Positions 22,718 through 59,046 of a stretch of DNA of 64,000 nucleotides are shown piece after piece. The notes beneath the pieces were generated by a model that was not told the origin of the DNA, did not search any database, and was given only the letters and a program-made list of their open reading frames with translations. Every line of letters starts with the position of its first letter. The first letter of the stretch is position 1. Source of the stretch: Candidatus Omnitrophota bacterium (GTDB lineage Bacteria; Omnitrophota; Gorgyraeia; 2-01-FULL-45-10); assembly GCA_028715345.1 (NCBI GenBank), contig JAQUSB010000006.1:4096-68095 (forward strand), read 5' to 3'. A program made the translations under genes and the position numbers.

Positions 22718-23254
22718 CTATGGGTGAAATCCTATCCTGCCCTTTGGTTTTTCTTGCGGCGGCGCCATTAACTGGCGGATCGCTTCGAATATAAGGCCTA
22801 TATCGGCATCGTGCTTGCCTATTTTCTGCTCAAGTTCCGCTAGCTTATGGGCAAGCTCCTTATGAGTCGCGAGAATCTCCCGCAATTTCACAAAGGCGCG
22901 CATAATAGCTATATTGACTTGCGCAGCTCTTTCACTATTAAGAACGCTAGATAGCATAGCTACCCCTTGCTCTGTAAAGACATAAGGAAGGTACTTAATA
23001 TTTTTACCTTTCTTCAAGGTCGCAATTTGCGACCTTGAACCTGATGTTCCATATTGAGAAATCAAGGCTTCTTCCTTTGTTAGTTGAAACATGAAATCAA
23101 CCGGAAAACGCATTATATTCCGCTTTACCTGTTCGTTAAGCCTTTTCGTCGGTACTCCATAAAGCCGGGATAGATCTCTATCAATCATTACCCTGTGACC
23201 GCGAATCATGAAAATTTTATTTTCCACAGTCTCAACTACAGCAACTCCCTTCAT
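22718..23254 (-). CDS. ORF6N/KilA-N-like domain protein (paralog 1)
   Basis: Start placed at ATG 23252-23254 (MKGVAVVE...) with GGAGGG 4 nt upstream. Conserved core IRGxxVMIDRDLxxLYGVxTKxLNxQVKRNIxRFPxxFMFQLTKxE...FTEQGVAMLSSVLNSExA...IMxxFVKLRE recalled as the ORF6N domain family. Confidence 0.75.
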   Translation of the reverse strand: MKGVAVVETVENKIFMIRGHRVMIDRDLSRLYGVPTKRLNEQVKRNIMRFPVDFMFQLTKEEALISQYGTSGSRSQIATLKKGKNIKYLPYVFTEQGVAMLSSVLNSERAAQVNIAIMRAFVKLREILATHKELAHKLAELEQKIGKHDADIGLIFEAIRQLMAPPQEKPKGRIGFHP

Positions 23255-23371
23255 TTTACCCTCCAATCTTGAAGTCACAACTTGTGACATCCTCCCATCT
23301 ATAAAGACGGTTTTCGCCCCGATTTGTTGCAGCCGATTTTAAAATAATTTTGGCGTCTATTTTTCCGGATG

Positions 23372-23387: not shown

Positions 23388-24620
23388 ATGACCGCAGAAA
23401 TAATATCGATAGGCACCGAACTACTGCTTGGCCATATCATAAACACCAATACAGCCTTCCTATCCCAGAAACTCGCTGAAGCAGGCATCGACGTATATCA
23501 TACTTCGGTAGTCGGCGATAATCCTAAACGCCTGGTCGAGTCATTGAAACAGGCGCTCGCGCGCGCCGATATCATCATCACCACCGGCGGCCTCGGCCCG
23601 ACAGTAGACGACATCACGATCGAAACGATAGCGAAATTTTTCGGCAGGAAACTCGTCCGCAATAAAATGGTCGTGAAATGCCTTCGGGATTATTTCAAAC
23701 TGCGCGGAACGAAAATACTTTCAGCAACTATGCGGCAGGCCTATACGCCGGAAGGCGTAAAGTGCATCCGCAATAACGTCGGCACCGCTCCGGGCCTTCT
23801 GATAGATCATAATAAGAAACTCGTTGTCTGCCTGCCCGGCCCGCCCAGAGAATTGAACCCGATGTTCGAGAATGCCATCCTACCCCGCCTTAGAAAAATG
23901 TCAAAAGCGGCATGGGTGATAAAGTCACGTACCATAAAAATATCGGGCGGAGCGGAATCGCAGGTAAATAAGGCGGTAAAGAAACTCCTCGAATTGAAGC
24001 CGCCGACCACTGTGGGAATTTACGCGAAACTCGGCCATGTCGAATTAAGGATAATGACGAAAGCAAAGAATGAAAAACTCGCGCAGGCCGCGATAGATAG
24101 AATAGAAAAGAAGGTCCGCGCAAAATTGGGCGGTTATATATTCGGCGCGGACGACGAAACGCTGGAAGGCGCCGTCGCCGGGCTTCTGGCTGGAAAGAAA
24201 ATGACGATAGCGGCCGCCGAATCCTGCACCGGCGGGCTCTTGTCCGACAGGCTCACAAATATAAGCGGCAGTTCGCGTTATTTCGTTATGGGGCTTGTCG
24301 CCTACTCGAATTCCGTCAAAGAAAACGTACTCGGCGTTTCGAAATATACCTTACGGGATCACGGGGCAGTTTCCGAAGAAGTCGCGCTGGAGATGGCCAA
24401 ACGGATAAGATCGCTCGGCGGAACGGACATTGGCATAGGGATAACAGGCATTGCCGGCCCCAAGGGCGGGACGAAGAAAAAACCTGTTGGCCTCGTCTAT
24501 ATAGCGCTCGTCCTGCCGCGTAAAAAAGTGGTAAAAGAATTCCGTTTCAAAGGTTCGCGTGATGAGATAAAATTTTTATCCACGCAAGTAGCGCTCGACC
24601 TCATTCGAAAAAATATATAA
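23388..24620 (+). CDS. cinA: Competence/damage-inducible protein CinA (MoeA-like N-domain + CinA C-domain)
   Basis: 410 aa. IISIGTELLLGHIINTN...TTGGLGPTVDDIT N-terminal motifs. C-terminal CinA domain (ESCTGG). Confidence 0.9.
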   Translation: MTAEIISIGTELLLGHIINTNTAFLSQKLAEAGIDVYHTSVVGDNPKRLVESLKQALARADIIITTGGLGPTVDDITIETIAKFFGRKLVRNKMVVKCLRDYFKLRGTKILSATMRQAYTPEGVKCIRNNVGTAPGLLIDHNKKLVVCLPGPPRELNPMFENAILPRLRKMSKAAWVIKSRTIKISGGAESQVNKAVKKLLELKPPTTVGIYAKLGHVELRIMTKAKNEKLAQAAIDRIEKKVRAKLGGYIFGADDETLEGAVAGLLAGKKMTIAAAESCTGGLLSDRLTNISGSSRYFVMGLVAYSNSVKENVLGVSKYTLRDHGAVSEEVALEMAKRIRSLGGTDIGIGITGIAGPKGGTKKKPVGLVYIALVLPRKKVVKEFRFKGSRDEIKFLSTQVALDLIRKNI

Positions 24621-24630
24621 TTCGGTCCTT

Positions 24631-25194
24631 ATGAGAACTTTTGTTGCCATAGAACTTTCCGAAGATATCAAATCGGCTCTCGACCAGGTCGAATCGCACC
24701 TGAAATATTCCGGCGCCGATGTTAAATGGGTTGCTAAAGAAAATATCCATCTCACTCTGAAATTCTTGGGCGAGATCGACGAGGCAAAGTGCGAAAAGGT
24801 AAAGTCGATCCTCGATACGATCGCTAAATCGACCAAACCCTTCGAAATTTCGTTAAAGGATATCGGCGCGTTCCCGAATATCGATCACCCTAAAGTGATC
24901 TGGGTGGGCCTCGATAAAGGCGCTGTTGAGTCGATCGAGCTTGCGGGTAAAATAGATTCCGAGCTCGCGAAGATCGGATTCGAAAAAGAGACCCGCCCGT
25001 TTACTGCGCACCTGACCATCGGCCGTGTCCGTTCTCCGAAAAATAAGCAAGCGATGAAAGAGAAAATTACGGGTTACCAATTGCCAGCGGCTAGCACCCC
25101 GCACTTTAGCGCGGGCACTCTTACGCTCTTTCAGAGCAAACTTACTCCTTCCGGCTCGATCTACACAAAACTTCACGAGGCAAAACTCGCTTAA
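24631..25194 (+). CDS. thpR: RNA 2',3'-cyclic phosphodiesterase (2H family, ThpR/LigT)
   Basis: 187 aa. Two HxT/S-x motifs (HLTLKF and HLTIGR) about 80 aa apart. Confidence 0.85.
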   Translation: MRTFVAIELSEDIKSALDQVESHLKYSGADVKWVAKENIHLTLKFLGEIDEAKCEKVKSILDTIAKSTKPFEISLKDIGAFPNIDHPKVIWVGLDKGAVESIELAGKIDSELAKIGFEKETRPFTAHLTIGRVRSPKNKQAMKEKITGYQLPAASTPHFSAGTLTLFQSKLTPSGSIYTKLHEAKLA

Positions 25195-25703
25195 GGGTGA
25201 AACCCTATCTGCCGCTTCGCTTTTTCCGGCGGCGCCATTAATTGCCTTATAGCTTCAAATATTAACCCTATGTCAGAATCATGCTTATCTATTTTTCTTT
25301 CAAGCTCAGCCAATTTGTACGCAAGTTCTTTATGCGCACTTATAACCTCGCGCAACTTCATGAACGTTTTTATTATGCCTATATTTATGTTTATCGCTTT
25401 TTCGCTGTTCAAAACACTTGAAAGCATCGCTACACCATGTTCGGTAAAAGCATGCGGCAGTACATACGAATGCTTCATTCTTGTGAACTGGTGCCAATTT
25501 GGCACCAGTTCACCCATCTCTTTTTTGGTTAACTGAAACATAAATTCTCCAGGAAAGCGTTGAATATTACGCTTAACCTGCCTATTAAGATGCTTAGTTT
25601 TTACACCATATAATTCGGCTAAGTCTCTATCTATCATAACTTTAACACCTCTTATTACAAATATTTTCTTCTCGATAACTTCCTGTGGTACAAATACTTT
25701 CAT
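25191..25703 (-). CDS. ORF6N/KilA-N-like domain protein (paralog 2)
   Basis: Start placed at ATG 25701-25703 (MKVFVPQE...) with GGAGG 5 nt upstream. The ORF-finder's TTG start at 25757 is rejected. About 55-60% identical to paralog 1 over the core; last ~45 aa nearly identical. Its stop codon overlaps the thpR stop codon (convergent). Confidence 0.75.
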   Translation of the reverse strand: MKVFVPQEVIEKKIFVIRGVKVMIDRDLAELYGVKTKHLNRQVKRNIQRFPGEFMFQLTKKEMGELVPNWHQFTRMKHSYVLPHAFTEHGVAMLSSVLNSEKAININIGIIKTFMKLREVISAHKELAYKLAELERKIDKHDSDIGLIFEAIRQLMAPPEKAKRQIGFHP

Positions 25704-25802
25704 CTTTTCCTCCATTTTTTCTAAGGCAAAACTTGATGTTCCAATTTGGCACTTCAAGATGTCTTCACATATAAAGACGATTTTTCCGGTAGATTTATTG
25801 CG

Positions 25803-25903: not shown

Positions 25904-28900
25904 TTACGCGGCCATTAGCGCGTCTTCGACCATCTTCTTGTAATGATTCAGCCTGTCCTCTACGTCGATCTTTGTAACAGGTTTAAATCTGAGTATTACG
26001 CTAAGCGCTAATGCCAGCGAATCCGTAAGGATCTCGTCGGTAACCTGCACATCGCCGAAGAGGAAATTCATCCCCATCTTTATACGGGCAGTGTCTTTCT
26101 CCATCATCGCTTTCGCAAGGTCTGCCACCGCTTCAAGGTAAAGGTAGTTGGTCCCCTCGAGTTTGCTTATGACAAGTATCGTCGCCTTCAACTTCTCAGG
26201 ATTCTGCTCGAGACCGCGCTGTTTGCATAATCTTGTAAATTCATCGCGCGTCATTATGCAGGCCGCCGTCCCCTCGCCCGCCGTCCTGTCTACATCTTCC
26301 CTCGACGCTATCTCTTTTATCTCATCGAAGGACCCGACCCTGACCGGCTTATCGTTACCGACGAGTCCTCTGAGATGCTCGGCGTCCTCTGTTTCGAAGA
26401 GCCTTTCCGAAAATACTATCTGCGCGCCGGCGGGAAGAGGGGTTGCCGCGAGGCTCTCCCTGAACCTTCTATCTGCCGCGGTTATCATATCGCTTACCTC
26501 ATCACCCGCATTCGCGCCGGCGGCATCGGTGACTATTTGCGTCTCATCGGCCAAATCGTCTTCGCCATCCGAACTTCGGCGCTCCGACGCGGCGCTTGGC
26601 TCTTGCTCGGGTGACGGTTCGACCGGGTAAAAGCTTTTCATAAAACTATCGACTTTGGCCATTGCCTTCTTGATAAATTCTTCAGCTTCGGGACTTGAAC
26701 GTATGTGTCTGTATGCATTATCAAGCTGATCCCTGAAGTTTATAATCCATGCTGAGCTTTGCCAGACACCTGTAGATTCTGCATTAGCCGCACCGTATTT
26801 TTTGATTATCGCCCTTGATAATGTCAAATAAACTTCCGTCCCGATATCCATGAGGTCGCACAAGGCGTTAAAATCTACTTCTGCGCTATTTGAATAACCT
26901 CTGCTGATATTACCCGAAATCGCATCGGGATCGCCTATCTCTTTCTGCAATTCATCAGGGGTCATGACACCCCAGAAAAGCCAGTTAATATTCCCGTTTA
27001 CTATATCGCGCGTAGATTGGTTTAAAACGGGATGGCGTTTATTCACAGTGTCCTGTATAAGCTTGGCAATAAAACGATATGCCGTTACTTGTTTTTCATT
27101 TCCTATAGCCTTATTATATTCAAAGCGGCCGCCTTCTACCATTTCCGCAAGCGTTTGTTCCGTAACATTTTCATTCCAGATAAGCTCCTCCGCCCCGGCG
27201 CTTGGCGCAGGCGACGGTGCGGCGGGAGCAATGCCAGTATTGTCTACAAAACTTATTCCTAATAAGTGCGCTAAAGATCCGAGCTTTTCGCAAATAATAG
27301 GCAGGGTTTTACGCAGAGGATGAAGATCAGGGATAGCTGACCTTGATTCCAACCTTATGCCTTTACTTTTTTGCGCTAAAGATATTCCGGCAACTAAGCT
27401 AGGCATATTGTCTTGTGTTGATAATTCGTTTGTATCATAAAACTCTATCCTCCATTCGTCATAACTGGCTGAAATTGTCCAGGCAATACTAGGACATTCA
27501 CTGGATAATGGTTTTCCAACTCCAAAATGTAGCTCAATATAAGAAAATGGATCTCTCGTATACCTAGCCCTTGCAAATTTAACCACGCCTGGGATGCCCG
27601 AAGCTTCTTCCGGCTTTTCAGGCATACCGCTGGCAAATCTCAGCGCTCCGCCCGACCTCAAAGGACTCTGCATTTCTCTTAGCGCCTGCGTATCGGGCGC
27701 GGTCGGGCCTCCGGCCTGCGGAAATATAGCGCGGTGTTTCGCGCCATCGTCTCTACGCATCGCACCGTCTACTTTATGCGCTTCACTTATTTTCGTCGTG
27801 TCGTCTCCGACCTGCGAGCTTCCGCGCCCGAGAGCAGCGGCAGGCATAGATGCGTCGATATCAAAAAGTAATTTTCCGTCCTGGTTAAAGACTCTAAGGG
27901 ATCTATCAGGGAATTCTTTTACGAAGAAATCCCTGAACTCTTCCGCATATTGGTCGTATACTATTACCCCGACAATAGCTTCAGGGGGGACATATTTTGT
28001 ATGCACCTCATCATGGGTAGGATCCTTTACTAAATGCGCTTCTTCGTATCTTATATTGCTATATATACTACCGGTTTCATCCCTGTAATTTGAAGACATA
28101 ACATGCGTATCTTTAAAAAATTCGCCGCAAGCTGTAAAGTCATTGATATGCTGCCGCAGGTAATACGGGCTGATTATCAGCGCTAAATCAAATTTATGAT
28201 CTTTCCAAAGCTCGTCGCTGTCTATACGCCATTTCAGAGCCGGATCTGGGGCGCCCCAAATGCTATTGCATGCAGATGTAGAGGAATAACCCAACTTGCC
28301 CACCATAGATAGCGACACCTTGCTGGGATCACCGCGCCCGACAAAATCATATTTTTTGAATCTAGGAGGAAGGTCATTCCACGGTTTAATGCCTTCCCTG
28401 AATATCGATAATAAACTATCTACTCGATCTTCAGGATCAAGGTGAGCTGCAACATGCCCATGGATAAGAAGCCCCGGCGTATTAATATCGGTTACTGTCG
28501 TAAATAGCGCAACGTAAGTTCGTCTTAGCAGCGCCTTGTTTTTATACAATACCGGCGTTGCGTTCGGCAGCATATTCTTACGCCAGTCTATCTGACTACT
28601 GGCGTCAAGAAGATTTCTATCGCCCATAGCCGCCCGCATTGCGCTCGTCTGCGTTCCATGGCCAAATGCCACTACTGTACGATTTTTGTATTGCGAATTA
28701 AGTTTTATCATGAGGTCTCGGCTGCGTTTTATCATATCGATAAAACTCTGCCCGCCCTTAGGCCGGATCGTCGCGTCTAATCCTTTGCGATACCTTGTTG
28801 CTAATGCCGCCTCTTCCGCGCTTAATTGATCTTCTCTTTTATTATCCCATATGCCGAAATTGATCTCGTTTAAAAGCTCGTCCGGGGCCGTCTCTACAAC

Positions 28901-31900
28901 TACGCCCGTTCTCTCTTTGACTAGATCTACGAAGGCCTTTGCCGTATCCTTTGCGCGGCTAAGCTGGCTTGTAAGAATTACTATCTTTTCGCCGGATATT
29001 ATCCTGACTTCCAGCTGCCTGAACAATTCTATAGCTGCCGAGCCGGCCTGCTCCAGGCCTCTTTTATTCAGTTTATTTATCGGCTCATCGAGCATTCCCT
29101 GGAATATGCCTTCTGCGTTCCCGTACGTTTCTCCGTGCCTGACCATCCATAGGTCGAATTCGGGCTCTATGAACCCGGCCTCGCCGAATCTTATTCTGCC
29201 CGTACTGTCATCTACGAGAATGCTGCCCCCCATATCCTCCGGCCGCACTGCAGCGTAAGGATCGGTACCGGTTTTCCTTTGGGGCACGGATTTTTTCGGC
29301 GGCACAATCACAACTTCTTCGACAATCTTGTCTATACCCCCCTTGCGGTAGATCTCTGCTCTTACATCCAAATCGAACTCGCTTAACATTATGGCAATGT
29401 TTTTAACTAAAATAGACCGCTGTGAAATAGCCCGCGCCAATTCGTTCTTAAGGTTATCTTTACCTGTATCTATGCCTACGGCCTGCAGAAGAGCTTTAAC
29501 GTGGGGGTTATCCAAACAGACCTCTGCAAACATTCTCTCATCCAGCGTAGTCAGCCTTGTTAATGTCCTCATCGTTGCGTCTATTTCTGAAACGACATCT
29601 CCGCTGGCATTCGTGGCCATATGGTCTATCTCATGCGGTATGCTGAAATGTTCAAACTTTGCCCTGCGCGCGCTCGTAGCCCTGCCGGTAATAATATCGC
29701 TCACTTCTTTCTCCGAAACATAAATAATAAATCTGCCGTTAATAAGCCTTATGATGGAATCCGTAGGCAAATCGGGACTGATTGCGAATCCTATATCCCT
29801 GCCCGTCCCCGCCGCGTCATGCACAGCTTTAATATTGACTAAGTAGGACAATTCTTCCGGAGTAGGCTGCCTGTTTTTTACTGAATCCGCAAAAGCGCTG
29901 CTGCCTACCGAGACGACAAATGGTGAGCGGGATTCCCGCCTATGAAGGCTCACACCCACGAACAGGCATCTTATCTCATCTTCCGTATATGGAAATTTCA
30001 TAATTGATTTTTCCGGATCGTATTCCGAGCCAAATAGGTCATTACCGTTATCGATGAAATCCTCTCTTCGGAAAGGATTTTTCATGAAATGTCCGGCGAT
30101 CCTTTCATCAAGAAATACGCCTTCTATTTCGGTAAAAGAATCGGCGATACGCTTGTTAAATGAATCGATATTATCGACAAACTCCCTGGCAGCATCCGCT
30201 GATTCGGAAATATCTCCCACGTCAAAAATAGTCAAATCATCGTCTGATTTTCTTATCCCGTAATTTCCCACGATATTATGAGTATCGATGTCGACGACAC
30301 CTCTCTTATACATCGCGATAACGAGCCGTTTGAATTTATCGACATAACTTATCGCGCGCTTCAATTCATCGTCACTGCACCCTTTCCGCCCCAATGGTTT
30401 TAAATAATCTATAAGAGGCAAAACCTTTCTTTGCACGATCGCTACTTTGCTCTCAACGCGTCCCTGGGTTTCAGTATAAAAAACGAACGGTTTTTGCTGT
30501 GCGGCGCGCGTATCTATTATCATGAGATCCGCGGCAGGGCCCTGACCCAATCTCTTCATCGCTATCTTCGCGCCATCCAGCGAATAGATATCGGCATACG
30601 CCATCGCATGTTCACCGTTCGGCACTTTAGCCACAAACCCGTCTGCCGGATCTTCGTCTTTGTAGCAAATCAAGTATCTGCCGACACCTCCATAGCTAAG
30701 CATATCTGTCCATACAACGGCTTTCCCGGAGGTTTCAGCGGACGGTTTTAAATTTTCATGAACTTTCCTTATAGCGCTTACAAGGTATGCTGCATCTACT
30801 TCCAGCGCTTCTTCTATTCCTATCCGATTAAGAATATCTCTCTTCTCTCCGATATTCTTGGCCGTCTCCGCCTTTTCTATAACTTCGAAATCGACAGTAT
30901 TTAACTTCCTAATAAACCTGTCAAATACATCCCACCTGCTTTCCTTGCGATCCGATCGCCTTCTCGGGCGACCGCCAAAAGGCGAAGATGCCGGCCTGTC
31001 ATTATTGAGAAACTCGTCCCCACCCAGCGAGCTTCCGTGCTCCGCCGCCACGTCCGGTTCTGTTTTCGTCGCAGCCGGCTTTGTTGCGCTATATTCATCT
31101 GTCTTCTTTACAAAAACCATACTCGGGAAGGAAGGTACCATTGAATTCGGAACTTTGTAACCGGTAAATCGCGCCGCAGGAAAGAACTTTTCGAAGTAAT
31201 TATCGGCCGTTGTAAGATTAAGAATGATAAACATTGCGCCGGGCTTAGCCTGACCGGCAAAGTTCCTGTAAAGGGTCTCCTGTTCACGCGGAAAAGCGCC
31301 CCTATCCACATAGACGACTATATCGTATCCGCTCAGATCCTTCTTTGTAAAATCATTATCGTTGCGTTCAGCCGGAATATTAACTATGCCTTTACCGATA
31401 ATGTTTTCACCCTCGAGGGCCGTCCTGATTTTAGCGGTCAAACCCCTTAGTTTATCATCCAATTCCGATCCGTCGGCCAGACCGGCTCCGCAGACAGCCG
31501 CCGTAAATAGAACGTCACCTCTTCCCGAGCCGGCATCGAATAACTTCTTACCCTTTATGCTGACGGGCTGTAAATTCTCATCACACAGATTGGCGAACAA
31601 CTCCCGGAGAGCGTAGATATCCGAACCGACATAAATGCCGACATCGCCGTCGACGCCTGTCGCATCGCCTTGTTGATACGGAGACTGATATTCCGGTCTT
31701 GAAAGGACACTGGAAAGGCGGGCTATTTTTCCATCTTCGATCCTAGAAGCCGCTTTGGCCTCTTCGCCCTGCGTGTTTCGAGGCAGCGGTATTTGAATCT
31801 TAATAATGTGTCCTCCGGGTTTCGGCCCTTCATGCAAAATATCGTCCTGCCAGCCTACTGTAATAGACGCTCCTTCCGGCATTGCTATAGATTCCTCGAT

Positions 31901-34900
31901 CGTTTCCAGCGCATAAAACATCGCGGATACACCTCCGCCGGCTCCCGTTTTTACGCCTCTTGCCGAGTTGGGCGCTTTTTCACCGGGCCACGGCCTGTCT
32001 TTTGTCGTAAACCATTCTTTTGCGGTCAATTCTTCGGGCAATTTGTTAGAACCAGGACCCCATATTTCAAGACGAATCCCGTCATAAGGCTCATTGCATG
32101 GATAAATTCTGGCCACAACATAATTACTAGCCGTCCCTCCTCCGCCGAATGAATAGCGATATTCATGATGCTTTAAATTTGCGATTATGTTCATCAGTAC
32201 ATGTTTAAGGAATAATTCCATCGCCTCCGGCGCGCTCGCTTCGACTCCGGCATCCTTACGTAATTGAACGCTGAAATTATTTTCTTCAGCCGCTTTCATT
32301 ACTTTTTCCGCAAGCGGCTTACCGGTATCTATTTTAAACAGATCAACTTTGGTAAGGTCTATTTCTGTTTCGGCAAAAGCAGGCACAGGCCCTGTCTTGC
32401 GAGAGGTATGCACAGGAATGCCTGCGGCATCCGGCTCAATACGCGCATATTTACCGGGCTTCGGTATCGCCGTGTCTTTGCCTTCTGCCACAGCGGTTTG
32501 TTGCGGCGTTGCCGCCTCGGCTGGCTTCTCCGACACTGCGGCATCTTCCCGCAAAACAGCCTGCTTGGCCTCTTGCCATGCCTGTCTCCATACGGCCCTT
32601 TCTTTGCTCCAGTAAGCGTTAAATGCCTGGGCGCCTTTACTTTGGAAAATCATACTACGCATATCATCCGGCAGAACTCTGCCCAGGACACGCATCACGC
32701 CTGAAAGTTTTTCACTCGCATAGCCGAAACGCTTTTCTACATCCGTATACACCAGCCGCGCCCATATTTTACGTTCAGATGTCTTGAAGCGAACAATGCG
32801 AGCCTCGGGTATACCCATGATTATGATGTCTCTACCTGTCATAGGGGTAACCTTAAATATCGCCTTAGTAAGCTCCTCAAATGCCGCCGATGATGCCTCC
32901 TGATCAAGCTCCAGAGCTCTTTTGATACGACGCGCCACCTCATCTGGGCCTTTATAAAACATGTCTTCCAACCATCTTAATAAAAGTATTTCTTTCCTGC
33001 TATTAAGCGACAATTCGCCTTGCAACGCTTCTGTTATCGTTCCGCGGAAATCTCTATCTGCGAACATAGGCTCAGCCTGCAGGCATATATCATTTACCAT
33101 ACTGTTAAGTTTCGCGTCAGCTTCCTGCATAGATATGGCGGGAGCAGCCTTATCGTGGAATGCTTCATCCAAAGACACATCTTCAGGGACTGAATCTGTC
33201 CAATCTTTAGAGTCAGTCGGCAATAGTTTATATTGGATCACCCCTCTGCCTAACCCCGCCTCAGCCATTCTCACCTTATAAATAGCTTCCATCACTACTT
33301 GACCATACTGCCTGCGTATAAAGCCCGGTATATCAGGATATAGCCGAGCTACATTAAGTTCTGTTCTTAGTCTCGTAAATAAAGTCGGATTCTGTGAAAA
33401 TACATAGACTATGCGCGCCCAATCTTTATTTGCCTCGGGAGTGCCGAGGTTTTCCATAGATTTAAAAGCGGCGATAACACCTTCTCCGTCGGGTACGGCC
33501 AGGCCTTTCGCCATGGCTGCCGTCCATTTCATAAAATCGCGCCTTGAAACCTGCGGCTGCCAGACGCCCCTCGCTTCAGACGGCAGAGGATGCAGAGGGT
33601 TACCGCCGAAATCATCCAAAGCCTTAATTCGGCCTCGCATGGCTTGCGGAACAGCAGTTTTAGCTACGCTTAGCTGATTTGCGGCGCCTCCCTGCGGCTT
33701 CGCGGGTTCGGCCGAGGCAGCTATGGCCATATCTACGGCAGCTCTCATCTCCTTGAAACTTTTATACATACCACTTTTTATTTGGCTGATCATTTCGGCA
33801 AAAGGCAGCCAATCTCCTGAGCCGGATCCTGTTATATATTCTTTAAGCTTGTCAGGGTTTTCCACTCCGCCCGGAATATTCACCTCGCCGGTAGCGAGAA
33901 CCGCAAGTGTATCACCTATCTTCCATTGATATGTTTCAAAAACATTCTGTCTATCGCCTGAAATGAACCATGAACCAAAATCCGTAAGCCTGAACCCTCC
34001 CTCGGCCGTTACAAGCATATGGCTGATCTTATAATCACTATAAACAATGCCCTCTTCCGAAAGCTTATCGGCGGCATCGATAAACTCTTTCACAGCCCCC
34101 AGCACCGTTTCAGGTTTTTTGCCCCTCGACCAAGTCAGTATGTCTTCGCCTTCGATCCATTCCATGGCATACCAACTGTTGTCCGGCGCCGCGTCTATAA
34201 AACGCGGAATAAATTTATATCCGCGCGTGCTGAGTCTTTTGGCCATAGCTATTTCATTAATAAAATCGGCTTCTATCAGTTTGACATTATATTTAATCGC
34301 TACTTTTGAGCTAGCCCCTATATCTTCCGCTTCATATATATTAGACATGGCATGCTGCCTGGGGCCCAAGCCGGTTATAACGAAAGAACGAGCCTGGCCT
34401 TTGACAGTTTGGCCGGGAATAAATTTTTCGCCTTTACCTTCACCCGGCATCTGCGCCCGGACGACTGCATTATCGCCGGATGGAACCGGAGCAGCCTCTT
34501 TATTTTGCACAGCAGCGCCAGATCTCGATAAGCGGTTAGCGATAAATTCACCCCACTTTTCTCCGTAGATCGGCGCGTTGGCCCTGATATTTGTCTTAAA
34601 TATTTCGACGGCCCCGTGATAGTGTTTAATACGCTCATCACATAATTTTATTATTGTTTCACGCTGCGCGTCGTCTGTATGTTTTGCGAATTCCCTTAAC
34701 GCAGCTATCGCTTTTTCATTTTGCACGATCCTTTCCCTCAATGATCGCTCTAAATTTTCATATTCTTCCCCGCCTTCTTTAGCTTTCCGGATCTTCTCAA
34801 GAAGCTCATTTTCAGTGTCAATTGAGTCCATCCTTCTGGCTATTAAATAATCCACCTGCCTGCCAAGGTCTAGTTTATTCTGTGCCGCGTTCTTTCTTGT

Positions 34901-37900
34901 AGAATCATAAATGGTATTCCCTGTCAATCTATCTAGCAGTATGGGATATAGCTCTATAGGCCCTTCCCCGGACGCGACTATATCGCGATATCTCTTTATC
35001 TTCGCAATAAGAGCATCCCCTCTCGACAGCAAGCGTCTGGCTATATATGCCGAGATCGACTCACCGATCGATCTTCCGGTTTCTTTTTGAAGCTTAGCTA
35101 TCTCGGCAGGGTAAGCATCTACATACGCATATGCATGATCTTCCTGGATCCTATCCCAGTATTCCACGGTGGTTTCAGGTAAACATTTTCCGAATAGATC
35201 GGTATATACCGCTTCGATCGCTTCGGCGGGTATACCGCTACTAGAGGCCACTTTTCCCACAATAATATGTCCAAGCGGCGATATTTGGAACGGGGACATC
35301 AAGCCTGCTTCCAGAAATGCCCGTCTATCCATTCCTTCTTTTCCCGGCTGCATTTCCGGCTTATCGGGCACACCTGCAGCTGCCGCTTGCGCCTTTTCAA
35401 CTTGCGGCTTCGCATCTCTATCCGGGGCGGGCAGGCTTTCGCGGCCTGTCTTTTCCTTGATATGCAAAGACCTTATTTCTTCCTGCAGCACACTTAACTC
35501 TATCTCTTCTCCCACAGCATCGATACGGGCCGGGGCAAGCTCCAGTTTTGCGGGTTGCTGGCTTATAATACCGCGGTTGATCGTGCAAGGTATGATATTA
35601 CCTGCCGTATCAACTCCGCCGACATAACGAGCGGGTGCGCGCAAAGAAGCCTCAAGCCATATCGCGGCGTCTTCTATATTCTTTTGTTTTATTTCGTCAA
35701 AACCAACCGTATCGTTAAAACCCGGTATATCGAGATTTGCGTCAGGATGCCGTGCAAATAAAATACAATTTTTGTTTCTCTCGAGGGGGGCAAAACGCCC
35801 GGGATACAAAATTTCAAGATATTCATTCAACCTATCGATCGCATGCCCATCCCACATGACATCTACCATCCGGGCATGCCGCTCGTCATTACCTACTATA
35901 TTTTTATTTTTCCGGAGATAGCTCAATATCCCATCTTTCGGGCTTCTTTCGTAAATAGTCCTGGGAAAATCGAGATATTTTATATCTGCATCGGGATCCA
36001 GCCCAAAGTCCGGAGCTAAAAACCTCGCTAACACATAAAGTTTGTATCCCGCCCCACCGATAAATACCATATACTCTTGTTTGGCATCGAGCCTACGCAT
36101 CTCGCTTGCAAGAAACTCATAAATAATCGATGCATGCTTTTTAGCCTCCGTCTTTATCCAGTCATACTCCGCACCCGGCGCGGATGCATTCTCGGTCTTC
36201 GGCGCTGGGCGCGGCGTGTTCGTCCTACCGATATCCGACTCGCCCCACGGGTCCGTCTCTTCGGGCGGATTACCTACGACGATCCTCACCTGCTCCTCGG
36301 GTCCGACATCCATAGTATCGCCGATCCCGAATGTCCACACCGCTCCGGACGAAGTTTTATACGGAGATATCTGCCTGCCAGCCGGATAAGTTCTCATAAG
36401 GGCGTTTTTACCGTAAGACGGCGCGGGCAAACGCACCATACCGATCGAGTCAAGATATCCCGATAGCTGTTTTATTATCCTGCCGGAACTTGTAACAGCC
36501 GCGGAAGAATCGGGCAAGAACGGCAGTTCGGATATCATGCTCCTTATTTCCGCGGTTAATCTTTTCACATCATCATTTTCGCCGTAAGCCTGGTACGCCT
36601 CCTTCGCGACGCACTCCGCTATGCCAAGCAGCGCCCGCAGATCGCCATACAGGCACATACGATAATCCCGCTCGCCGTCGCGGTATGGTATCTCATAATC
36701 TACGATATGCGGTAACCCGCTCGAGTAGAGTATATGAGGCCTTTCCGCGTCTACAGCGCCGTGAGCGATGCCCTTAGAGTGCATCTCGCTTACGGCTTCA
36801 TACAGCCAGATGATCTCATTGACCCTCGCGCTCAGATATTCTCTTAGAGGCATGCCTTCGAGAGCGCTGTAACGTATATGTTCGGCAAGGGACAGGGTCC
36901 CGTAATCGGGCATTAAATAGACGCCTTCATCCTTATACACGGCGTGCACTTTAGCGTGGCACGGGTGCTTTAAAAAGCCGCCGCACAGCTCTATCTCTTT
37001 TTCCCGGCCCTCTATTGGTTCGATAATAAATCGCAGACCCGTATCGACTTCCACGACTAACTTTTTATCGTCGCCGCCATGAGCAAAATTGCGTTTTTCT
37101 ACTTCATATTCTTTGCCGCCGAGGATAATTGCTTGACCAGTATTGAGACGGCTTATATCGATCTTCGCCGGGGCCCGGGTTATTTTTGGCTGTCCGCCTT
37201 TATCATTAGATATTACCCGCAGTACTTGCTCAAGATACGCATGAAGGTCGGAGGCTCTGACAACAGCACTGCCGTAAGGCGCGGGTTCGGAGATTAGCGG
37301 GGAATCCGGATAAAGGGCTCTGATCGCTTCCTGAAGATTATCTATACACCACAATAAGGAAAAGTCTTCGTTAAGTATGCCTATATTTAACGGCGGGGTA
37401 AGCTTTTCTTTAAGAGGCAACTCCCCGATCCGCAAACGCTCCGCGGCCGCCGCAACCACCGCGAGAGTATTATAGTACGATTCGACCCTGCCTTTATTTA
37501 CCTCCGGGTCAAGTCTCGCTTTCTGCCATGCCTCGGAAGCCCACCTCAAATAATAGTCGCCCAGCATATTCCATGCCAATATACCTGCGAACGCCGCTGT
37601 CATTACTGCGGCCGCCGGCACTAAACCATAGTTATAATACACGGCGAGTGCAACAAGCGCTAACGGCAGTATCTTAATAATGTTAAAAATCGGAGCGCTT
37701 CCCGATTCGCCCAATCCGTCCAAACCCTTATTTTCCGCAGTAACGCTTTGCGATAACTCACCTTCGAGACCATAAGCGGCGATTATTTTCTTTTTAACGG
37801 CCGCATTCTTTTCCGCGGCTGCTTCACTGACTCTTTTCGCAAGCGCATTGTAATGATCGTTGCGTATGTGCCTGCCATCGGGAGTAATACTCTGCCCAAA

Positions 37901-40900: not shown

Positions 40901-43900
40901 CGCACTGGCAGCTGCCGCGGCCCACTGGGCACCGTGCCTGCCCGGCCACGGCCTTTGTCTTCCCCCTCCGACTGCCGCTTTCCGGCCTTCCGTCTTCACC
41001 TGCGCCCGGGAGTCCGCCCTAATAACCTTTAACTCATAAACGCGCTTGTCATATTCAAAGATGCGGCCCGTTTCTTTTATTTCGTATCCGCACATCTTGC
41101 CGATCCTTATCAGCGATCCGATCATTTGCGGTTCTTTGTCCCGGGAAAGCGCTGACAACAAAATTACTCCGTCCGGCTTGGACAATGGTAAGACCGCCGC
41201 GATCAGATCATTTCTTTCGCTATCGCCTAATTCATCTAATACGTTCAACAGGAATATCTTAGAGTAATGATTTTTAGGCAAATCAACATCCTGAACGCGG
41301 CCTCGATATGTTCCCGTATCTATGCGCTCGCCTATCATGTCGTAGCCGAATATTTTTTCCATGAGCCTTTTGTAAAAATTTACTTTTCCTTCAAAGCATT
41401 TCGTCTGTTCTATAGCCCCTATATCACGTATTTCATAATATGGCGGCTGACATAAGTCCACTCTTGCACCTTTTATTGCAGAAAAAACGGCATGATCCGC
41501 AAGGGGGCCGCTGCCGATACACAATACGTCATCATCCTGCCCAATGCCGATCCCATCGATCATATAGGCTGTATTAGAACGCATCCAATCATATGTACCT
41601 AACTCCCGATCCATAGCATCGGCTATCACTGAAGCAGTTATGGGCTTAGTCACGGTTGGGCCGGTTTGCCGGTTTTCAGGCGCCATTTTTATATGCACAT
41701 AGGCTGTCTCTTCCACCGTTCCACTAATATCATCAATATAAGGGACATTCAGGCTGAACTTTCCGACAAACCGCACGAAGGGGTCTTCCGGATATCTCGT
41801 AATCGCAAAAGGCTCTACCGAAATATGTATACCGCCGGGTTTAAGGATACGCCCGATCTCTTTCCGCGCTTGAGCGGCCTGGCCGCGGTCAAAGGGCATC
41901 GCCTTTACCGTATCGAAAATGCACCTCTCCGTTACAATGTCCATCATACCGGTAAACTCTTCAGGCAATTCAAGAACGTTCATGCGATATCCGTATATCT
42001 TGGGTGTCGGTTTTCCATGAAATTGCTCGTCGAGGAAATAGTCTAATGCGTAGAAAACGTCCCAACTGACGTCAACAAGATGTATGGCGCCTATCTCCGG
42101 GTATTGCTTGATCAATCTGGTAATTGCTTTAGGATTCGTTCCCGGCCCTATAAAAAGAACGTTAGCGCCTTTAAGGTCCGGCTTGAAAGAATAGGGCCCC
42201 GTATCGGTTTTCATGGCTTCTTCGATAAAATTACCGACGAAATGATATCTGGTGTTCTCCTGCGGGGCAATACTTGTAGAAACATACGCATCTTCTGTAT
42301 TAAAATCGGGTGAAGTGACTCTGTATTTCATCCCGGCTTCCATAATTTGCTGCGCAGTTAACCATTCACGCAGTTCTATAACTTTTAATTTGGGCATTTT
42401 ATCATTTTCTAGTTCACCCAGGCGCTTCTCTATTCTTATTGCTTTCTTCGCGGGGCCATACATACCTATTGCGTTAACGGCCATACCAGGACGCGATTCT
42501 TCTCTCCTGGGGAATACGCGGTCTTCTCCGTTATCCGGCGAGCGCCTGATATCTAAATAGGGGTCGGGATTTGATTTCGATGCCGTTTTTTGTTTATCCG
42601 GCAACGGTACACTAGCCATGAAAACTAATCGCCCGCCCTCGAGTTTAATCCCTATATTTAGTCTTTTAGCGATCTTCGCATACGCTTTAATCTCTTTCTT
42701 GACTATACTGGGCATAACAACATCTTTTTTATATCCCTTGGCATCCTCTAATACCAATTTCATTAAACGGAACCGCACGTCCTCTTTACGCGTTTCATCA
42801 TATACATATAAATAATTTACGTATATTTTGCCCGGGTAATTTACGGGGTCGAGATCATATTTAATATCTCCTAGTCTATGAGGGCCGGACTTTATGGTAA
42901 AATAAACTTTGTGATGCCCTTCCTGATATCGCTCATGTTCGATTTTGAGACTTGCGGGCATAAGGGGTTCTTTGGGGAAAAGTTTGTTATATACCATTAT
43001 GATAATGTTGACTATAACATGGGTAATAACATACCCGGCATAAAGACATATAGCAGGCGCGCCGGGAGATTTAAATGTCCACCAGAGGCTTATAAGCATT
43101 ACCGCAATAGGAGCGGTAAAAACACCCTGGATCGTATCGCTTGCAGAGGGTTCCTTATTATTATTGGCTTTATATAACGAGACATACCTTGGGACATTTA
43201 CATCATGCAATAAAACCAATAGCAGCGACGCGAAGATCACTCCTGCTAACCCGCCAATAATACCGCCAACCCCTTCACCCATATTATGCCCCATGACTCT
43301 GACGCCCTCTTCCAGTAACGGCATTATGATCAAACTGCTGAACCAACTTATACCGGAACTAGAGCTCAACGCTATCGAGCCTGACGGGCGGTCATCATCC
43401 ATATCTTCCAGAGATACAACCGGGGCCTTATCTATTTTCCCGCTGAGAAGGTTCGCTGATTCCCCATCCTCTTTTACCCGCGACCCGGGAAGCCGATCCT
43501 GCGGCGCCGGACGCGGAGTGCCGCCGCCCAGATCTTCCGGCATACCGTCCGACGTTAACCAGTCACCGGCGGGTTTTAAATAGCTTCGCGGGCCATCCGT
43601 GCTTTTCAATGGATTCTGCGGCACGCGGCCTGCGGCCATCTTCTTCACCGCGCCCTGCGGCCGTGCCTCGGACGGAGCCGTTGTGCTCGTTAGAACCTTC
43701 AAATTATTCTCTAAACGCCCTATTTCAGTTTCTATGAGCAAATAATCTATGACATCGCCTCTTATTCCGTTAAAATATTTACCATCCCGCATATCAGCCA
43801 GAAAAACCTTTAATCTCACGATATCTTTTTCTAATTGCCTGAGGGCCTTTCGCTTTATTTCCGGCAGGTTCAACCCCTCGCCTCTTCCTATTCTCGCATC

Positions 43901-46900: not shown

Positions 46901-49900
46901 ATACAAAATTTCATCGGGGATCCTATCCAGCGACGTTATCCCGAATTGTTCCCGCATCATAACCAGGAATTTTTCTTCCGGCAGTTCAGCTTGCTCCATC
47001 AATGCGCGAAGCTTCGCTATCTGCTCTCCGGATATGGGTGTGCGGAAAAGCTGGGGGCTTGCCGGCATAAGCGGCGTTTTCGGGAAAATTTTATTGTGCA
47101 GTATAACTATGATGTTCGCAAGGACATGATAGATCAAATATTCTTTATAAAGGAATGAAGCAGGCGCCGCGGCATATACATACGTCAACCACAGACTGAT
47201 CAGCGCGACGACCGAAGGCATTATGAAAACAGCCATAGCTGTACCGGCGGCAGAAGGCGCCTTACCGTTATGGTATTTATATATTTCTACATACCTCTTC
47301 GTATTAACATCGTGCAATAGGATCAAGATGGCCGAAGCCGCTATAAGGCCTATCCATCCTCCGGCAAGGCCTCCGATCCCCTTACCCATCTCATACCAGC
47401 ATACCCTGACCCATGCTTCTAAAGGCGGTAATAATGCCAAAGAATAAAACCACCCTATCCCGGAAGGAGGCCTTGACGCAAATCCGCTCTCGCTTTCAGC
47501 ATTCCTTTTAACGGGAACAGCGGCATGTTTGATCTTTTTTACCCGCGCCTTCAAAACATCCGCGATCTTGCGCGAGCCGACCGCGCCCAGCACGCCCTCC
47601 TGCTCCCATTCGCTTTTATTCAAATAAAGAGGCGTATATCCGTTTCCGATCAATAGATAATTCATTAAAAACCATGCCAGGCGATGGTGGCCGCTTGCGG
47701 GATGCGTATTGCCGCCCGAAAGATCCGGTATCGTATCGAATCCCCGTAATAGCACATCCTCTCCGGAAAAATCTGCTCTCCGCCCGCCGCCTATAAATAT
47801 CTCCCGCTGAATGATGTGCGCATAGATATCGCCGGCGTAAGCAATAACATTCTCGCCATTGGCGTATTTATGGTTTACCAGTTCTAGAATATAGCCCAGG
47901 CTTTCTTCGGCTGAACTTATCCTTTGCTGTTTTATTTCATCAGTATATTCCGGATTTTGCCTGTCGCCGCGGTATAATTCGAAGAGAGTGATGATCTTAG
48001 GCCATGTAAGCGGCTCGCCAGATACTGAATTAAAATACTCTGCCGCCTCTATAAAATGGCTATCGCATCCGAGTTTCCGCAAAATATCTATGTCAAGTTT
48101 ACCTATTTGCCGGTCATCCGCCGTTACTGCAAGCGACTGATTTCCCGGGATACGATAATGGCAGATATATGTAGGAGGCAGCTTTCCGGCCGGACGGCAA
48201 TCTACGATATTAACTTCCGGTTCGCTTACCGGCTCCATCTCAGGGAATGAGACCTCCGGATAAAGGTTATCTATACGCAAATTGTACATCTTCCGGCCAC
48301 TGCCTTGGGCTTCATAATGCCTGTATTGGGGTTTTTCCGAAGCGGCATTCAGCCAGTCGCAAAGCTCGCCCGGATCCATAACCCTGCCGGATCCGTCACA
48401 GACGTCAAAACACTCTACGCCTTCGATAAAAGCGATGCCGCCTTTCTTTAGAACCCGTTTGCACTCACGCAGGATCATATTCTTTTGCCGCATATATCGC
48501 AAAGACTCGAACGTAATTATCAGCACATCGAACGAGCCGTCCGGGAAAGGCAGCCCCCGGTCGACATCATGCTCCCTGATATTTTTAAAGAAATAATCGG
48601 TAAATTCCTGATAGTCGGGGCCGAGAAGCCTGTAATGCCTCTCATGCAGCCTTATATTATTTTTATTTATAAAATCGAGCGATAATTCCGGAAATTGCTT
48701 CCTCATATCATAGATATAATGGCCTGCTCCGGCGCCTATGACCAGTCCCCTGGGAGAATGCCCTGCGCTGCGCGCCTCCTGCATTACACCGCGTATAGCC
48801 GGCGCGGCCTCACCGCCGAACATCTCTTCTGTTTTACTGAACCGCCTGCTAACCCAGATAAGCGCAAGGAACTCGTTTTGCTCGGTATTTACTTCAGCTT
48901 CTTTATCATTTTGCAGGACCTCATTTCCCGTATCTGTTCGCCCCTGTCCGGAGATCTCGTCCATGCGCAGGAATGCCTTCGCGCCGAATCTTTGCGCGGT
49001 GCGGGCCATCTCGCGGCCGATCTCGAACCCGGGAGCGCCTATAAGAGCACCTGCCGCCGCATCATAGACGGCTGCCGGGACCCATTGCGCGCCTCGCCTG
49101 CCCGACCACCACGCCGGCCTGCTCTTGCCGCCGCCGGCCTTCCGCCTCTGGCCTGTCTTACCTTTTTTAACCGTGACGGGTTCAGATGGGCCAATATTTT
49201 CATTTTCATCACCGTATTCGTCGTCTTCGTCATCTCCATCCATTTCGTCATCATCGGGCTTCCCTGCAACGGCTTTCCTTAAAAAGTCAGTATCCGATAT
49301 CTGCAGGTCTCCGGCGGAGATGGTCCCGCTTATAATAAGTTTTTTCAGCTTATATTGGGCGGTGGTAAGCAGCATCTTACGGTCATTGGACCTTCTAAGG
49401 TTGAGTCTTTCGACTACGTCTTTTAAGGCCGGCTTCCTTATATAGCCGCTCTCCATATATAATTCAAACGCTGTAGAAATAATCTCCTCAACAGGGAAAA
49501 GAGGTTCCGGATCCATAATAACAGCTTCTTTTCTCCCCATATCTCGCTGCATTTGAACGACATCTAATTCATCTTCAGGATCCATTATTTTCATGAATTT
49601 TTTCGCAGCGGCAGGCGATGGGGCGATAGACCGGCTGAGAGCTTTCAATACCATAAGCGGAAGCGTTTTCGCCAGCGCGTCATTTCCTTTCTCGGGATCC
49701 AGGATATAACTGCACACATATAATCCGCGCTCATCGCAAAAAATAAGCTTCGGCGCTTTCCCGCGTTCCCGTATCTTTTGCGCTTCGAATTCGTACAACA
49801 ATCCATCTTTAAGATATGCTTCCATACGTTCATATGAAGCATTTAAGATTCTCGATATTTCTCCGGAAGATATACCATTGTGCCGGGCGAGCTCCTCTAT

Positions 49901-58048: not shown

Positions 58049-58092
58049 TTGCCCTATATAATGTTTTATTCTTTTAACAAGACAAAAATAAA

Positions 58093-58131
58093 AAGACCAG
58101 ATCGCCAAGCGTCTCTAGGCTATCTGGTCTT
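58093..58131 (-). other. Perfect 10-bp inverted repeat hairpin plus T-tract in the giant-gene leader (terminator/attenuator-like)
   Basis: AAGACCAGAT (58093-58102) and ATCTGGTCTT (58122-58131) flank a 19-nt loop. On the minus strand the hairpin is followed directly by UUUAUUUUUGUCUUGUU (58072-58092), about 25 nt upstream of ATG 58046-58048. Confidence 0.5.
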
Positions 58132-58593: not shown

Positions 58594-59046
58594 TTATAGG
58601 CGGATAATAAACCTGAATATCACCTGGAGTATAAGGTTCGTGTATATCGCGGCTACGATATCGTCGAACATTACGCCGAGCGAGCCGGTCAATTTTTCCA
58701 TCCTCTTCGCGGGCGGCGGTTTCAATATATCGAATATCCTGAACAGGAAAAACCCGAGTATCACAGCCAAAGCGCTGAACGGCACGAAGAAAAGAGCAAG
58801 CAGCATCCCGCACGCCTCGTCTATCACTATCATGTTGGCGTCTTTTCTCTTGTATATCTTTTCGGCTTCGCCGGAGAATATTATTCCCAGCACGAAAAGG
58901 AACAGGATGGAAAAACCGTACAGTACGTCTACGTTCCTTACAAGAAAATACACCGCTAACCCGCCGAGAGAACCTACCGTCCCCGGCATAAAAGGAGAAT
59001 GGCCGAGGTAGAAAAAACTTGTGATCATCTTAATCCGTTTTTTCAT
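58594..59046 (-). CDS. pgpA: Phosphatidylglycerophosphatase A
   Basis: 150 aa. GTVGSLGG...IDEACGM...FRIFDILKPPPA PgpA family motifs. Confidence 0.85.
   Translation of the reverse strand: MKKRIKMITSFFYLGHSPFMPGTVGSLGGLAVYFLVRNVDVLYGFSILFLFVLGIIFSGEAEKIYKRKDANMIVIDEACGMLLALFFVPFSALAVILGFFLFRIFDILKPPPAKRMEKLTGSLGVMFDDIVAAIYTNLILQVIFRFIIRL

Follow-up and report, generated by a model that had tools for sequence, protein, structure and literature searches.

Kinase-related modules of a giant protein

The 64,000-nucleotide stretch analysed here (the window), taken from contig JAQUSB010000006.1 of a Candidatus Omnitrophota bacterium, carries on its minus strand a giant open reading frame (ORF) that encodes a multi-pass membrane mosaic protein. 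A preliminary description, made from the sequence of the window, proposed that this protein contains a eukaryotic-type protein kinase domain and two further degenerate kinase-like regions, which we call K1, K2 and K3, along with histidine-phosphatase and HD domains. All of the peptides that it quoted are present in the minus-strand translation of the ORF. Judged from sequence comparison and structure prediction, K1 is a bilobal protein-kinase domain whose match to known kinases is far beyond chance. It appears to be a stripped-down bacterial variant of the Hanks type, one of a recurrent set of kinase modules in the giant proteins of Omnitrophota. The features that are central to this analysis are given below by window position, with residue numbers (aa) of the giant protein.

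25904-58108, minus strand: giant ORF of 10,734 codons (amino acids), a multi-pass membrane mosaic protein
36404-37183, minus strand: K2 (aa 6976-7235), a predicted kinase-derived pseudokinase module
33689-34423, minus strand: K1 (aa 7896-8140), a Hanks-type kinase-fold domain
29927-30970, minus strand: K3 (aa 9047-9394), a conserved module with motifs SYGG[VI]GRY, V[AV]K[VI]P, DIDxxN and FD[VL]GD
28625-29152, minus strand: His_Phos_1 histidine phosphatase (aa 9653-9828; Pfam, E 8.9e-25), with an RHG motif

Homology and predicted fold of K1

When a 301-amino-acid K1 piece is compared with the Pfam Pkinase family (PF00069), it scores 30.2 bits (E 4e-7) over profile positions 13-144 of 263, and K1 within a 5,000-amino-acid chunk scores 25.2 bits. 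A phmmer search of K1 against Protein Data Bank (PDB) sequences returned 268 chains at E<=1, the best of them at E 2.9e-5, and among the 60 matches listed, all are protein kinases. The best match is to PAK3, and places the VAIK, NEI and DFG sequences of K1 on their PAK3 equivalents and YSDYKISH on HRDIKSDN. An exhaustive HMMER search of 1.84 billion representatives with K1 recovered 391 proteins at a library-wide E<=1e-3; a word-indexed homologue search gave no match at E<=1e-3. Among contigs of species-representative genomes the sole match is a distant Planctomycetota kinase (locus L001, 25% identity), and no orthologue was found there.

A profile built from K1 relatives recovers K1 over its full length with 203-258 bits, and the relatives that were checked by Pfam are bona fide Pkinase members (P0004, 854 bits; P0013, 55.6 bits, above the cutoff). 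NCBIfam contributes a weak match of K1 to Bud32, at 22.5 bits, far under the curated cutoff.

The preliminary description proposed structure prediction as a check, and the AlphaFold2 (AF2) model of K1 is indeed bilobal and confidently kinase-like, with C-lobe helices alphaF to alphaI of the eukaryotic protein kinase (ePK) type. In a fold comparison, the nearest structures are the bacterial kinases PknB and YabT. The term "eukaryotic-type" is apt only in the Hanks sense.

Internal duplication as an origin of K1, K2 and K3 was ruled out, as a phmmer search of each against the giant protein matches only itself.

Retained and missing features of K1

Residues of K1 were assigned to kinase subdomains with an alignment of 21 sequences (A1), and column counts were taken from 225 related domains. 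The elements of the domain are as follows, from N-lobe to C-lobe.

34334-34372, minus strand: degenerate glycine-rich loop GLGPRQHAMSNIY, aa 7913-7925
34292-34294, minus strand: beta3 (VAIK) Lys7939, on invariant A1 column K44 and aligned with the VAIK of PAK3
34253-34255, minus strand: alphaC Glu7952 (NEI), on invariant A1 column E57 and aligned with the NEI of PAK3
34019-34042, minus strand: catalytic loop YSDYKISH, aa 8023-8030, with Asp8025 and Lys8027 kept and His8030 on the Asn column
33974-33982, minus strand: DFG, aa 8043-8045, with Asp8043 on a conserved column
33929-33973, minus strand: activation-segment remnant, aa 8046-8060

The peptide carrying the beta3 Lys, ASSKVAIKYNVKL, lies at 34277-34315, exactly where the preliminary description put it, as does RLTDFGSWF, at 33965-33991. 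The peptide with the catalytic-loop Asp, GIVYSDYKISHMLV, is likewise present in the 33750-34400 region described as a kinase domain, but its position, 34010-34051, is slightly outside the 33960-33990 assigned to it. The residues singled out for a profile check (K7939, E7952, D8025 and D8043) all fall on the correct profile columns.

The core of K1 (K44, E57, D130, K132 and D148-F-G in A1) occupies invariant or nearly invariant columns. Since all five core residues are kept at less than 30% identity to relatives (28-29% to the closest), selection on the K1 active site is suggested. The HR of HRD is Tyr-Ser in K1.

The DFG Asp and the alphaF Gly of K1 are 22 residues apart, compared with a median of 46 in relatives (5th-95th percentile 39-63). 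Because this distance is so short, we conclude that the activation segment, the P+1 loop and the APE motif have been lost from K1, through deletion of ~24 residues. In K1, Met (aa 8114) takes the place of the subdomain XI Arg, the usual partner of the APE Glu, and the alphaF Asp is absent.

Relatives of K1 and comparison with known kinases

The closest full-length relative of K1 is P0002 (3,834 amino acids), which is matched end to end with 102 bits and also has the activation-segment deletion. P0013 (NQT06012.1; 3,700 amino acids, partial) matches aa 7861-8146 with E 3e-18, and is a mosaic in the same style as the window protein, with glycosyltransferase, HD, Pkinase, methyltransferase, GNAT and pterin-binding domains. 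P0010 (MFH1790490.1), which is named as a 4-alpha-glucanotransferase, has His at the Asn column, as does K1. According to their NCBI names, P0013 and P0010 are partial proteins of Candidatus Omnitrophota metagenome-assembled genomes (MAGs), and every K1 or K2 homologue with a source organism name (P0151, P0013 and P0010) is from Omnitrophota. These modules are the closest to K1 in sequence over the whole domain. They differ from it in that P0013 and P0010 retain the activation segment, whereas P0002 has no catalytic loop.

We considered whether the long relatives share a giant-protein backbone with the window protein, and this was ruled out; the kinase module alone matches. Three long unnamed proteins (P0003, P0005 and P0006) carry arrays of 3-6 kinase-like domains, with 8-11 copies of [RK]SE[LM]R (for example, KRSELR) at domain boundaries. 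This sequence may act as a linker, or mark where the protein is processed. The giant protein of the window contains 0 copies, with 0.04 expected.

Unlike the bacterial Hanks-type Ser/Thr kinases (PF00069) such as M. tuberculosis PknB and B. subtilis YabT, K1 is without the GxGxxG glycines and has YSD for HRD and His for Asn. It additionally lacks the ~24 residues containing the activation segment, P+1 loop and APE, the alphaF Asp and the subdomain XI Arg. The setting differs as well, since K1 is located at residue ~7,900 of a membrane protein of 10.7 thousand amino acids (kaa), whereas the Hanks-type domain of a receptor kinase is at the N-terminus of a protein of ~600 amino acids.

Kinases without an activation loop can be active, and RIO, Bud32 and NleH/OspG are examples. 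Like K1, these proteins have a compact kinase core that lacks the activation segment. Unlike them, K1 has helices alphaF to alphaI of the ePK type, and its best neighbours are canonical ePKs. The resemblance is one of a possible way of working, and not of family membership.

Bacterial Ser/Thr kinases (bSTKs) have been surveyed in a published atlas, in which the pseudokinase family ActPs3/MviN has an attenuated activation loop, as K1 does (bioRxiv 10.1101/2025.01.12.632604). However, K1 differs from this family and from the DYD family in retaining the whole catalytic triad. Our comparison of K1 and K2 with atlas families is by their published description. The atlas families were derived from ordinary-sized RefSeq/UniProt proteins, and its text does not mention Omnitrophota (bioRxiv 10.1101/2025.01.12.632604).

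K2 is a predicted pseudokinase

The sequences by which K2 was originally recognized, GIAHGAVDAERPHIL and IVDYE, are found at 36728-36772 and 36692-36706. In a search with aa 6850-9650, the sole homologue was P0151, a hypothetical protein of 2,601 amino acids from an Omnitrophota MAG, residues 1282-1516 of which have 46% identity to aa 6982-7223, in K2. An hhalign comparison of the resulting two-sequence K2 profile (A3) with the K1-family profile (A1) gave a probability of 96.5% (E 7.3e-10) over 188 columns, extending from the N-lobe to alphaF. Weak matches of K2 in PDB and NCBIfam are almost all to protein kinases, such as MSK1, CDK2, Rio2 and Bud32 (the last at 14 bits, far under the cutoff). 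A hidden Markov model of the K2 family also matches many kinases, with up to 24 bits, in the region of alphaE, the catalytic loop and DFG. Thus, of the two further kinase-like regions originally proposed, K2 is well supported.

In register with kinases, the beta3 Lys of K2 is changed to Glu (FIIE), the alphaC Glu is kept, HRD is HGA, the Lys at the +2 position is Ala and the catalytic-loop Asn is His. DFG has become DYE, with the DFG Asp itself retained. The catalytic Asp has therefore been lost, as was thought, and so has the beta3 Lys. P0151 still has FIIK, with the Lys, and HTD, with the Asp, and so the K2 of the window is the more degenerate copy. The bSTK atlas (bioRxiv 10.1101/2025.01.12.632604) counts a kinase-homologous domain as a pseudokinase when any one of three residues, the VAIK Lys, HRD Asp or DFG Asp, has been lost. 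With its VAIK Lys and HRD Asp substituted and DFG altered to DYE, K2 falls within this definition, and by its sequence is a kinase-derived pseudokinase.

K3 is a separate conserved module

The motifs VVDIDTHNIV (30269-30298) and IFDVGD (30212-30229) that drew attention to K3 are present as described, but its interpretation as a degenerate kinase-like region was not supported. K3 forms a module of its own, with homologues that occur as separate proteins in archaea. A dedicated search identified two of these, P0152 (348 amino acids, 52% identity) and P0153 (349 amino acids, 48%), and both are colinear with aa 9047-9394 from the first residue to the last. Because they align end to end with it, K3 can be regarded as a complete module that also occurs as a free-standing gene. 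The free-standing genes are in archaeal neighbourhoods:

Locus L003, 7398-8444: K3-like gene
Locus L007, 8001-9050: K3-like gene

The P0152 gene is in a Woesearchaeota genome (GCA_019322805.1), among genes for RFC, aminoacyl-tRNA synthetases and RNA polymerase subunit L, and the P0153 gene adjoins Nre and TFIIB-type zinc-ribbon genes. This occurrence suggests that K3 was exchanged between DPANN-type archaea and the lineage of the giant protein. A scan of metagenome contigs for K3 yielded one 41-residue fragment only.

The chances that K3 is nonetheless kinase-like appear to be near even. K3 and its homologues have no significant match in Pfam and none in NCBIfam, in kinase families or among PDB sequences, and the K1-family kinase profile fails to retrieve K3. 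With hhalign, K3 and the kinase profile align with a probability of only 3.3-3.7% (E 0.011-0.013), locally to the catalytic-loop and DFG stretch, so K3 is not detectably a kinase by this comparison; greedy extension of the alignment makes K3 colinear with the kinase domain. An AF2 model from the three sequences is unusable (predicted local distance difference test score 42.1, predicted template modelling score 0.33). The motif order and spacing are kinase-like, with a Gly-rich loop, 18 amino acids, Lys, 112 amino acids, DxxxxN (DIDxxN), 18 amino acids and DxG, and are invariant in all three members. In a post hoc test, the D..N..DxG pair in a hydrophobic context arose in 1.3% of whole-protein shuffles. 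If K3 is kinase-like, it would represent a conserved family with a complete set of ATP-site motifs, and not a degenerate copy.

Architecture and surroundings of the giant protein

Pfam searches and a hydropathy scan identified the following additional features of the giant protein.

aa 247-331: GNAT (Pfam)
aa 1117-1227: HATPase_c (Pfam)
aa 3122-3230: S-adenosylmethionine (SAM) methyltransferase, Methyltransf_11 (Pfam)
37571-37696, minus strand: last hydrophobic (transmembrane-like) pair, aa 6805-6846
aa 7922-8046: Pkinase match below threshold (Pfam), in K1

The histidine-phosphatase domain named in the preliminary description is confirmed by its Pfam match. The HD domain that it also named was not found, since Pfam reports none at E<=0.01 in three overlapping chunks spanning the giant protein. 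Around 90% of the protein is without any Pfam annotation.

The listed start codon of the giant ORF is TTG, and the likely start is an ATG at 58046-58048, 20 codons further in (TTG to ATG, 58046-58108, minus strand). The sequence MNSEASAEKPLPRRFPKAVRIIASILVVTFLAQDIAWA|HP begins at this ATG, and makes the N-terminus signal-peptide-like. After the ATG (MNSEAS...), there are positive charges, a hydrophobic helix and then a signal-peptidase-like site, AWA|HP. If the protein were cleaved at this site, the GNAT domain would lie outside the cytoplasm, an odd location for an enzyme that uses acetyl-CoA.

There are ~17 transmembrane-like hydrophobic segments, mostly paired, and none of them lies in the 3.9-kaa C-terminal tail, where K2, K1, K3 and the phosphatase are located. 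Depending on whether 14 or 17 segments are counted, a choice decided by three weak ones, the tail lands on opposite sides of the membrane, and positive-inside counts are too crude to settle the topology. The preliminary description called the protein exported, which is a stronger statement than these counts support. A similar ambiguity is described for Omnitrophota giant proteins in general (bioRxiv 10.1101/2023.11.21.568195; 10.64898/2026.06.07.730766). The modules that use ATP, SAM and acetyl-CoA (kinase, HATPase_c, methyltransferase and GNAT) argue for a cytoplasmic tail. Two transmembrane hairpins, at 47159-47401 (minus strand; aa 3580-3642) and 42974-43291 (minus strand; aa 4949-5038), have near-identical flanks, GKGIGGLAGGWIGLIAASAILILLHDVNTKRYV and GEGVGGIIGGLAGVIFASLLLVLLHDVNVPRYV, whose similarity indicates a probable internal duplication of a membrane-anchoring unit.

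Upstream of the giant gene are ftsK, a MiaB/RimO-type radical-SAM gene, pgsA and pgpA (58594-59046), and downstream are an ORF6N-domain gene, ligT, cinA (23388-24620), a second ORF6N-domain gene, recA and alaS. The 32-kb gene is thus located between pgsA-pgpA and cinA-recA-alaS, and its neighbours are otherwise ordinary bacterial housekeeping genes. The ORF6N-domain genes (25191-25757 and 22718-23290, both minus strand) flank ligT-cinA directly downstream of the giant gene, between it and recA. ORF6N domains are common in mobile or phage-derived genes. The window contains no tRNA or rRNA, and no Rfam matches.

Activity, substrates and location of K1

On balance, and as far as sequence and model can indicate, we lean towards K1 being an active, constitutive kinase whose substrate binding is non-canonical. 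It would be a divergent and minimal Hanks-type Ser/Thr-kinase module, one of many enzyme modules along a giant membrane mosaic protein. Such a module has most likely kept ATP binding and phosphate transfer, and would work constitutively, independently of an activation loop and without peptide substrates being held in the canonical groove. His8030 may shift its metal preference. In favour of this reading, His recurs at the Asn column in 5 of the 225 related domains (Asn in 207), and one of these is the domain of the Omnitrophota protein P0010, which is otherwise canonical. The most economical substrates would be parts of the giant protein itself or its immediate partners. K2, ~700 residues upstream, is predicted to be catalytically dead and would probably serve as a scaffold or regulator, and the intact histidine phosphatase ~1,500 residues downstream could be the eraser.

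Several observations weigh against an active K1. The glycine columns of GxGxxG are occupied by Arg, His and Ser (RQHAMS), so that no glycine is left in the loop that binds the ATP phosphates. The catalytic-loop Asn, which is a ligand of the second metal, is His8030. In P0002, the nearest relative, the catalytic loop has been lost entirely (GSIFLRNQ). The Pkinase score of K1 is just under the curated gathering cutoff of 31.7 bits, a near miss that we attribute to the missing C-lobe motifs, and the AF2 model, having been built from an alignment of kinases, cannot count as evidence separate from homology. The pairing of kinase and phosphatase as writer and eraser and the idea of substrates in cis are only what we infer. 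The preliminary description called VAIK and DFG intact, and both are present, but this word hides the lost glycines, the change from Asn to His, the deletion of the activation segment, P+1 loop and APE, and the change from Arg to Met in subdomain XI. With the replacement of HR by YS, the same losses favour a K1 that is itself a pseudokinase, either nucleotide-binding or purely structural, that acts as a scaffold or switch like K2 and does not transfer phosphate. The dead loop of P0002 implies that members of the K1 sub-lineage can do without catalysis, and deletion of the activation loop is on record for pseudokinase families of bacteria (ActPs3/MviN; bioRxiv 10.1101/2025.01.12.632604). We consider a pseudokinase K1 to be a real possibility, though less likely than an active kinase. 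K1 retains the triad together with the alphaC Glu and the +2 Lys, and because all three triad residues are present it is not a pseudokinase as the atlas defines one. Moreover, retention of the full core at <30% identity would be unexpected without selection for catalysis.

Two other readings accept that K1 is a kinase, and assign it different substrates. An activation segment is missing from aminoglycoside and Kdo/WaaP-type kinases too, and K1, which has no P+1 loop or APE to form a peptide-binding platform, might phosphorylate a small molecule or sugar. Its relatives include proteins with sugar-handling modules (the glycosyltransferase of P0013, and P0010 by its name), and Pfam gives a weak match of K1 to ABC1, at 15 bits. 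However, the D-x-K arrangement of the catalytic loop is that of Ser/Thr protein kinases, the C-lobe helices alphaF to alphaI are of the ePK type, and the best neighbours in both sequence and structure, led by PknB, YabT and PAK, are all protein kinases. A small-molecule substrate is therefore very improbable. Alternatively, K1 could be an effector kinase that acts on proteins of another cell, with the tail extracytoplasmic or delivered to a host or prey. Bacterial effectors, NleH and OspG among them, are typically minimal kinases of this sort that have no activation loop. The giant protein has the signal-peptide-like N-terminal segment ending AWA|HP and many membrane segments, and the K3 module is also found in DPANN-type archaea. 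Omnitrophota are also reported to be host-dependent or predatory, and a role at the cell surface has been proposed for their giant proteins (bioRxiv 10.1101/2023.11.21.568195). Nevertheless, we regard an effector role as unlikely. The two counts of hydrophobic segments put the tail on opposite sides of the membrane, the ATP-, SAM- and acetyl-CoA-dependent modules point to the cytoplasm, and near K1 we found no signal for secretion or delivery. Moreover, localisation predictions for Omnitrophota giant proteins have been called unreliable or unvalidated (bioRxiv 10.1101/2023.11.21.568195; 10.64898/2026.06.07.730766).

The preliminary description offered built-in phospho-regulation or manipulation of another cell's phosphoproteome as possible roles. 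As one polypeptide combines a kinase and a pseudokinase with a histidine phosphatase, built-in phospho-regulation can reasonably be inferred, whereas manipulation of another cell by the giant protein would be speculation. A broader proposal is that the 3.9-kaa tail is a phospho-signalling cassette, comprising K2, K1, K3 as a new kinase-like family and the phosphatase, that works where the cell meets an archaeal host or prey, K3 having passed between DPANN-type archaea and Omnitrophota. This we consider unlikely.

Implications for Omnitrophota giant proteins

With more than 10 kaa, ~17 hydrophobic segments, and GNAT, HATPase_c, Methyltransf_11 and His_Phos_1 domains, the window protein fits the description of Omnitrophota giant mosaic proteins. 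Its GNAT, HATPase_c and methyltransferase domains match "Module 1" (signal-transduction/regulatory) of a catalogue of long Omnitrophota proteins (bioRxiv 10.64898/2026.06.07.730766). Histidine-kinase-like ATPases, methyltransferases and sugar enzymes have been recorded in these giant proteins (bioRxiv 10.1101/2023.11.21.568195; 10.64898/2026.06.07.730766). Hanks-type kinases are not mentioned in these two papers, and PF00069 was not found in their supplements.

Hanks kinases and pseudokinases of bacteria were already known, as were giant mosaic proteins, and our results are a modest extension of current understanding that does not overturn it. Omnitrophota giant proteins are mostly unannotated, and a recurrent, divergent module of the Ser/Thr-kinase type can now be placed in them. 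K1, with its complete triad but without the glycine loop, the Asn or the activation loop, is a natural experiment that probes what a minimal kinase core needs. An active-looking minimal kinase that shares its polypeptide with a dead copy and with a histidine phosphatase provides a testable handle on how these giant proteins may be regulated.

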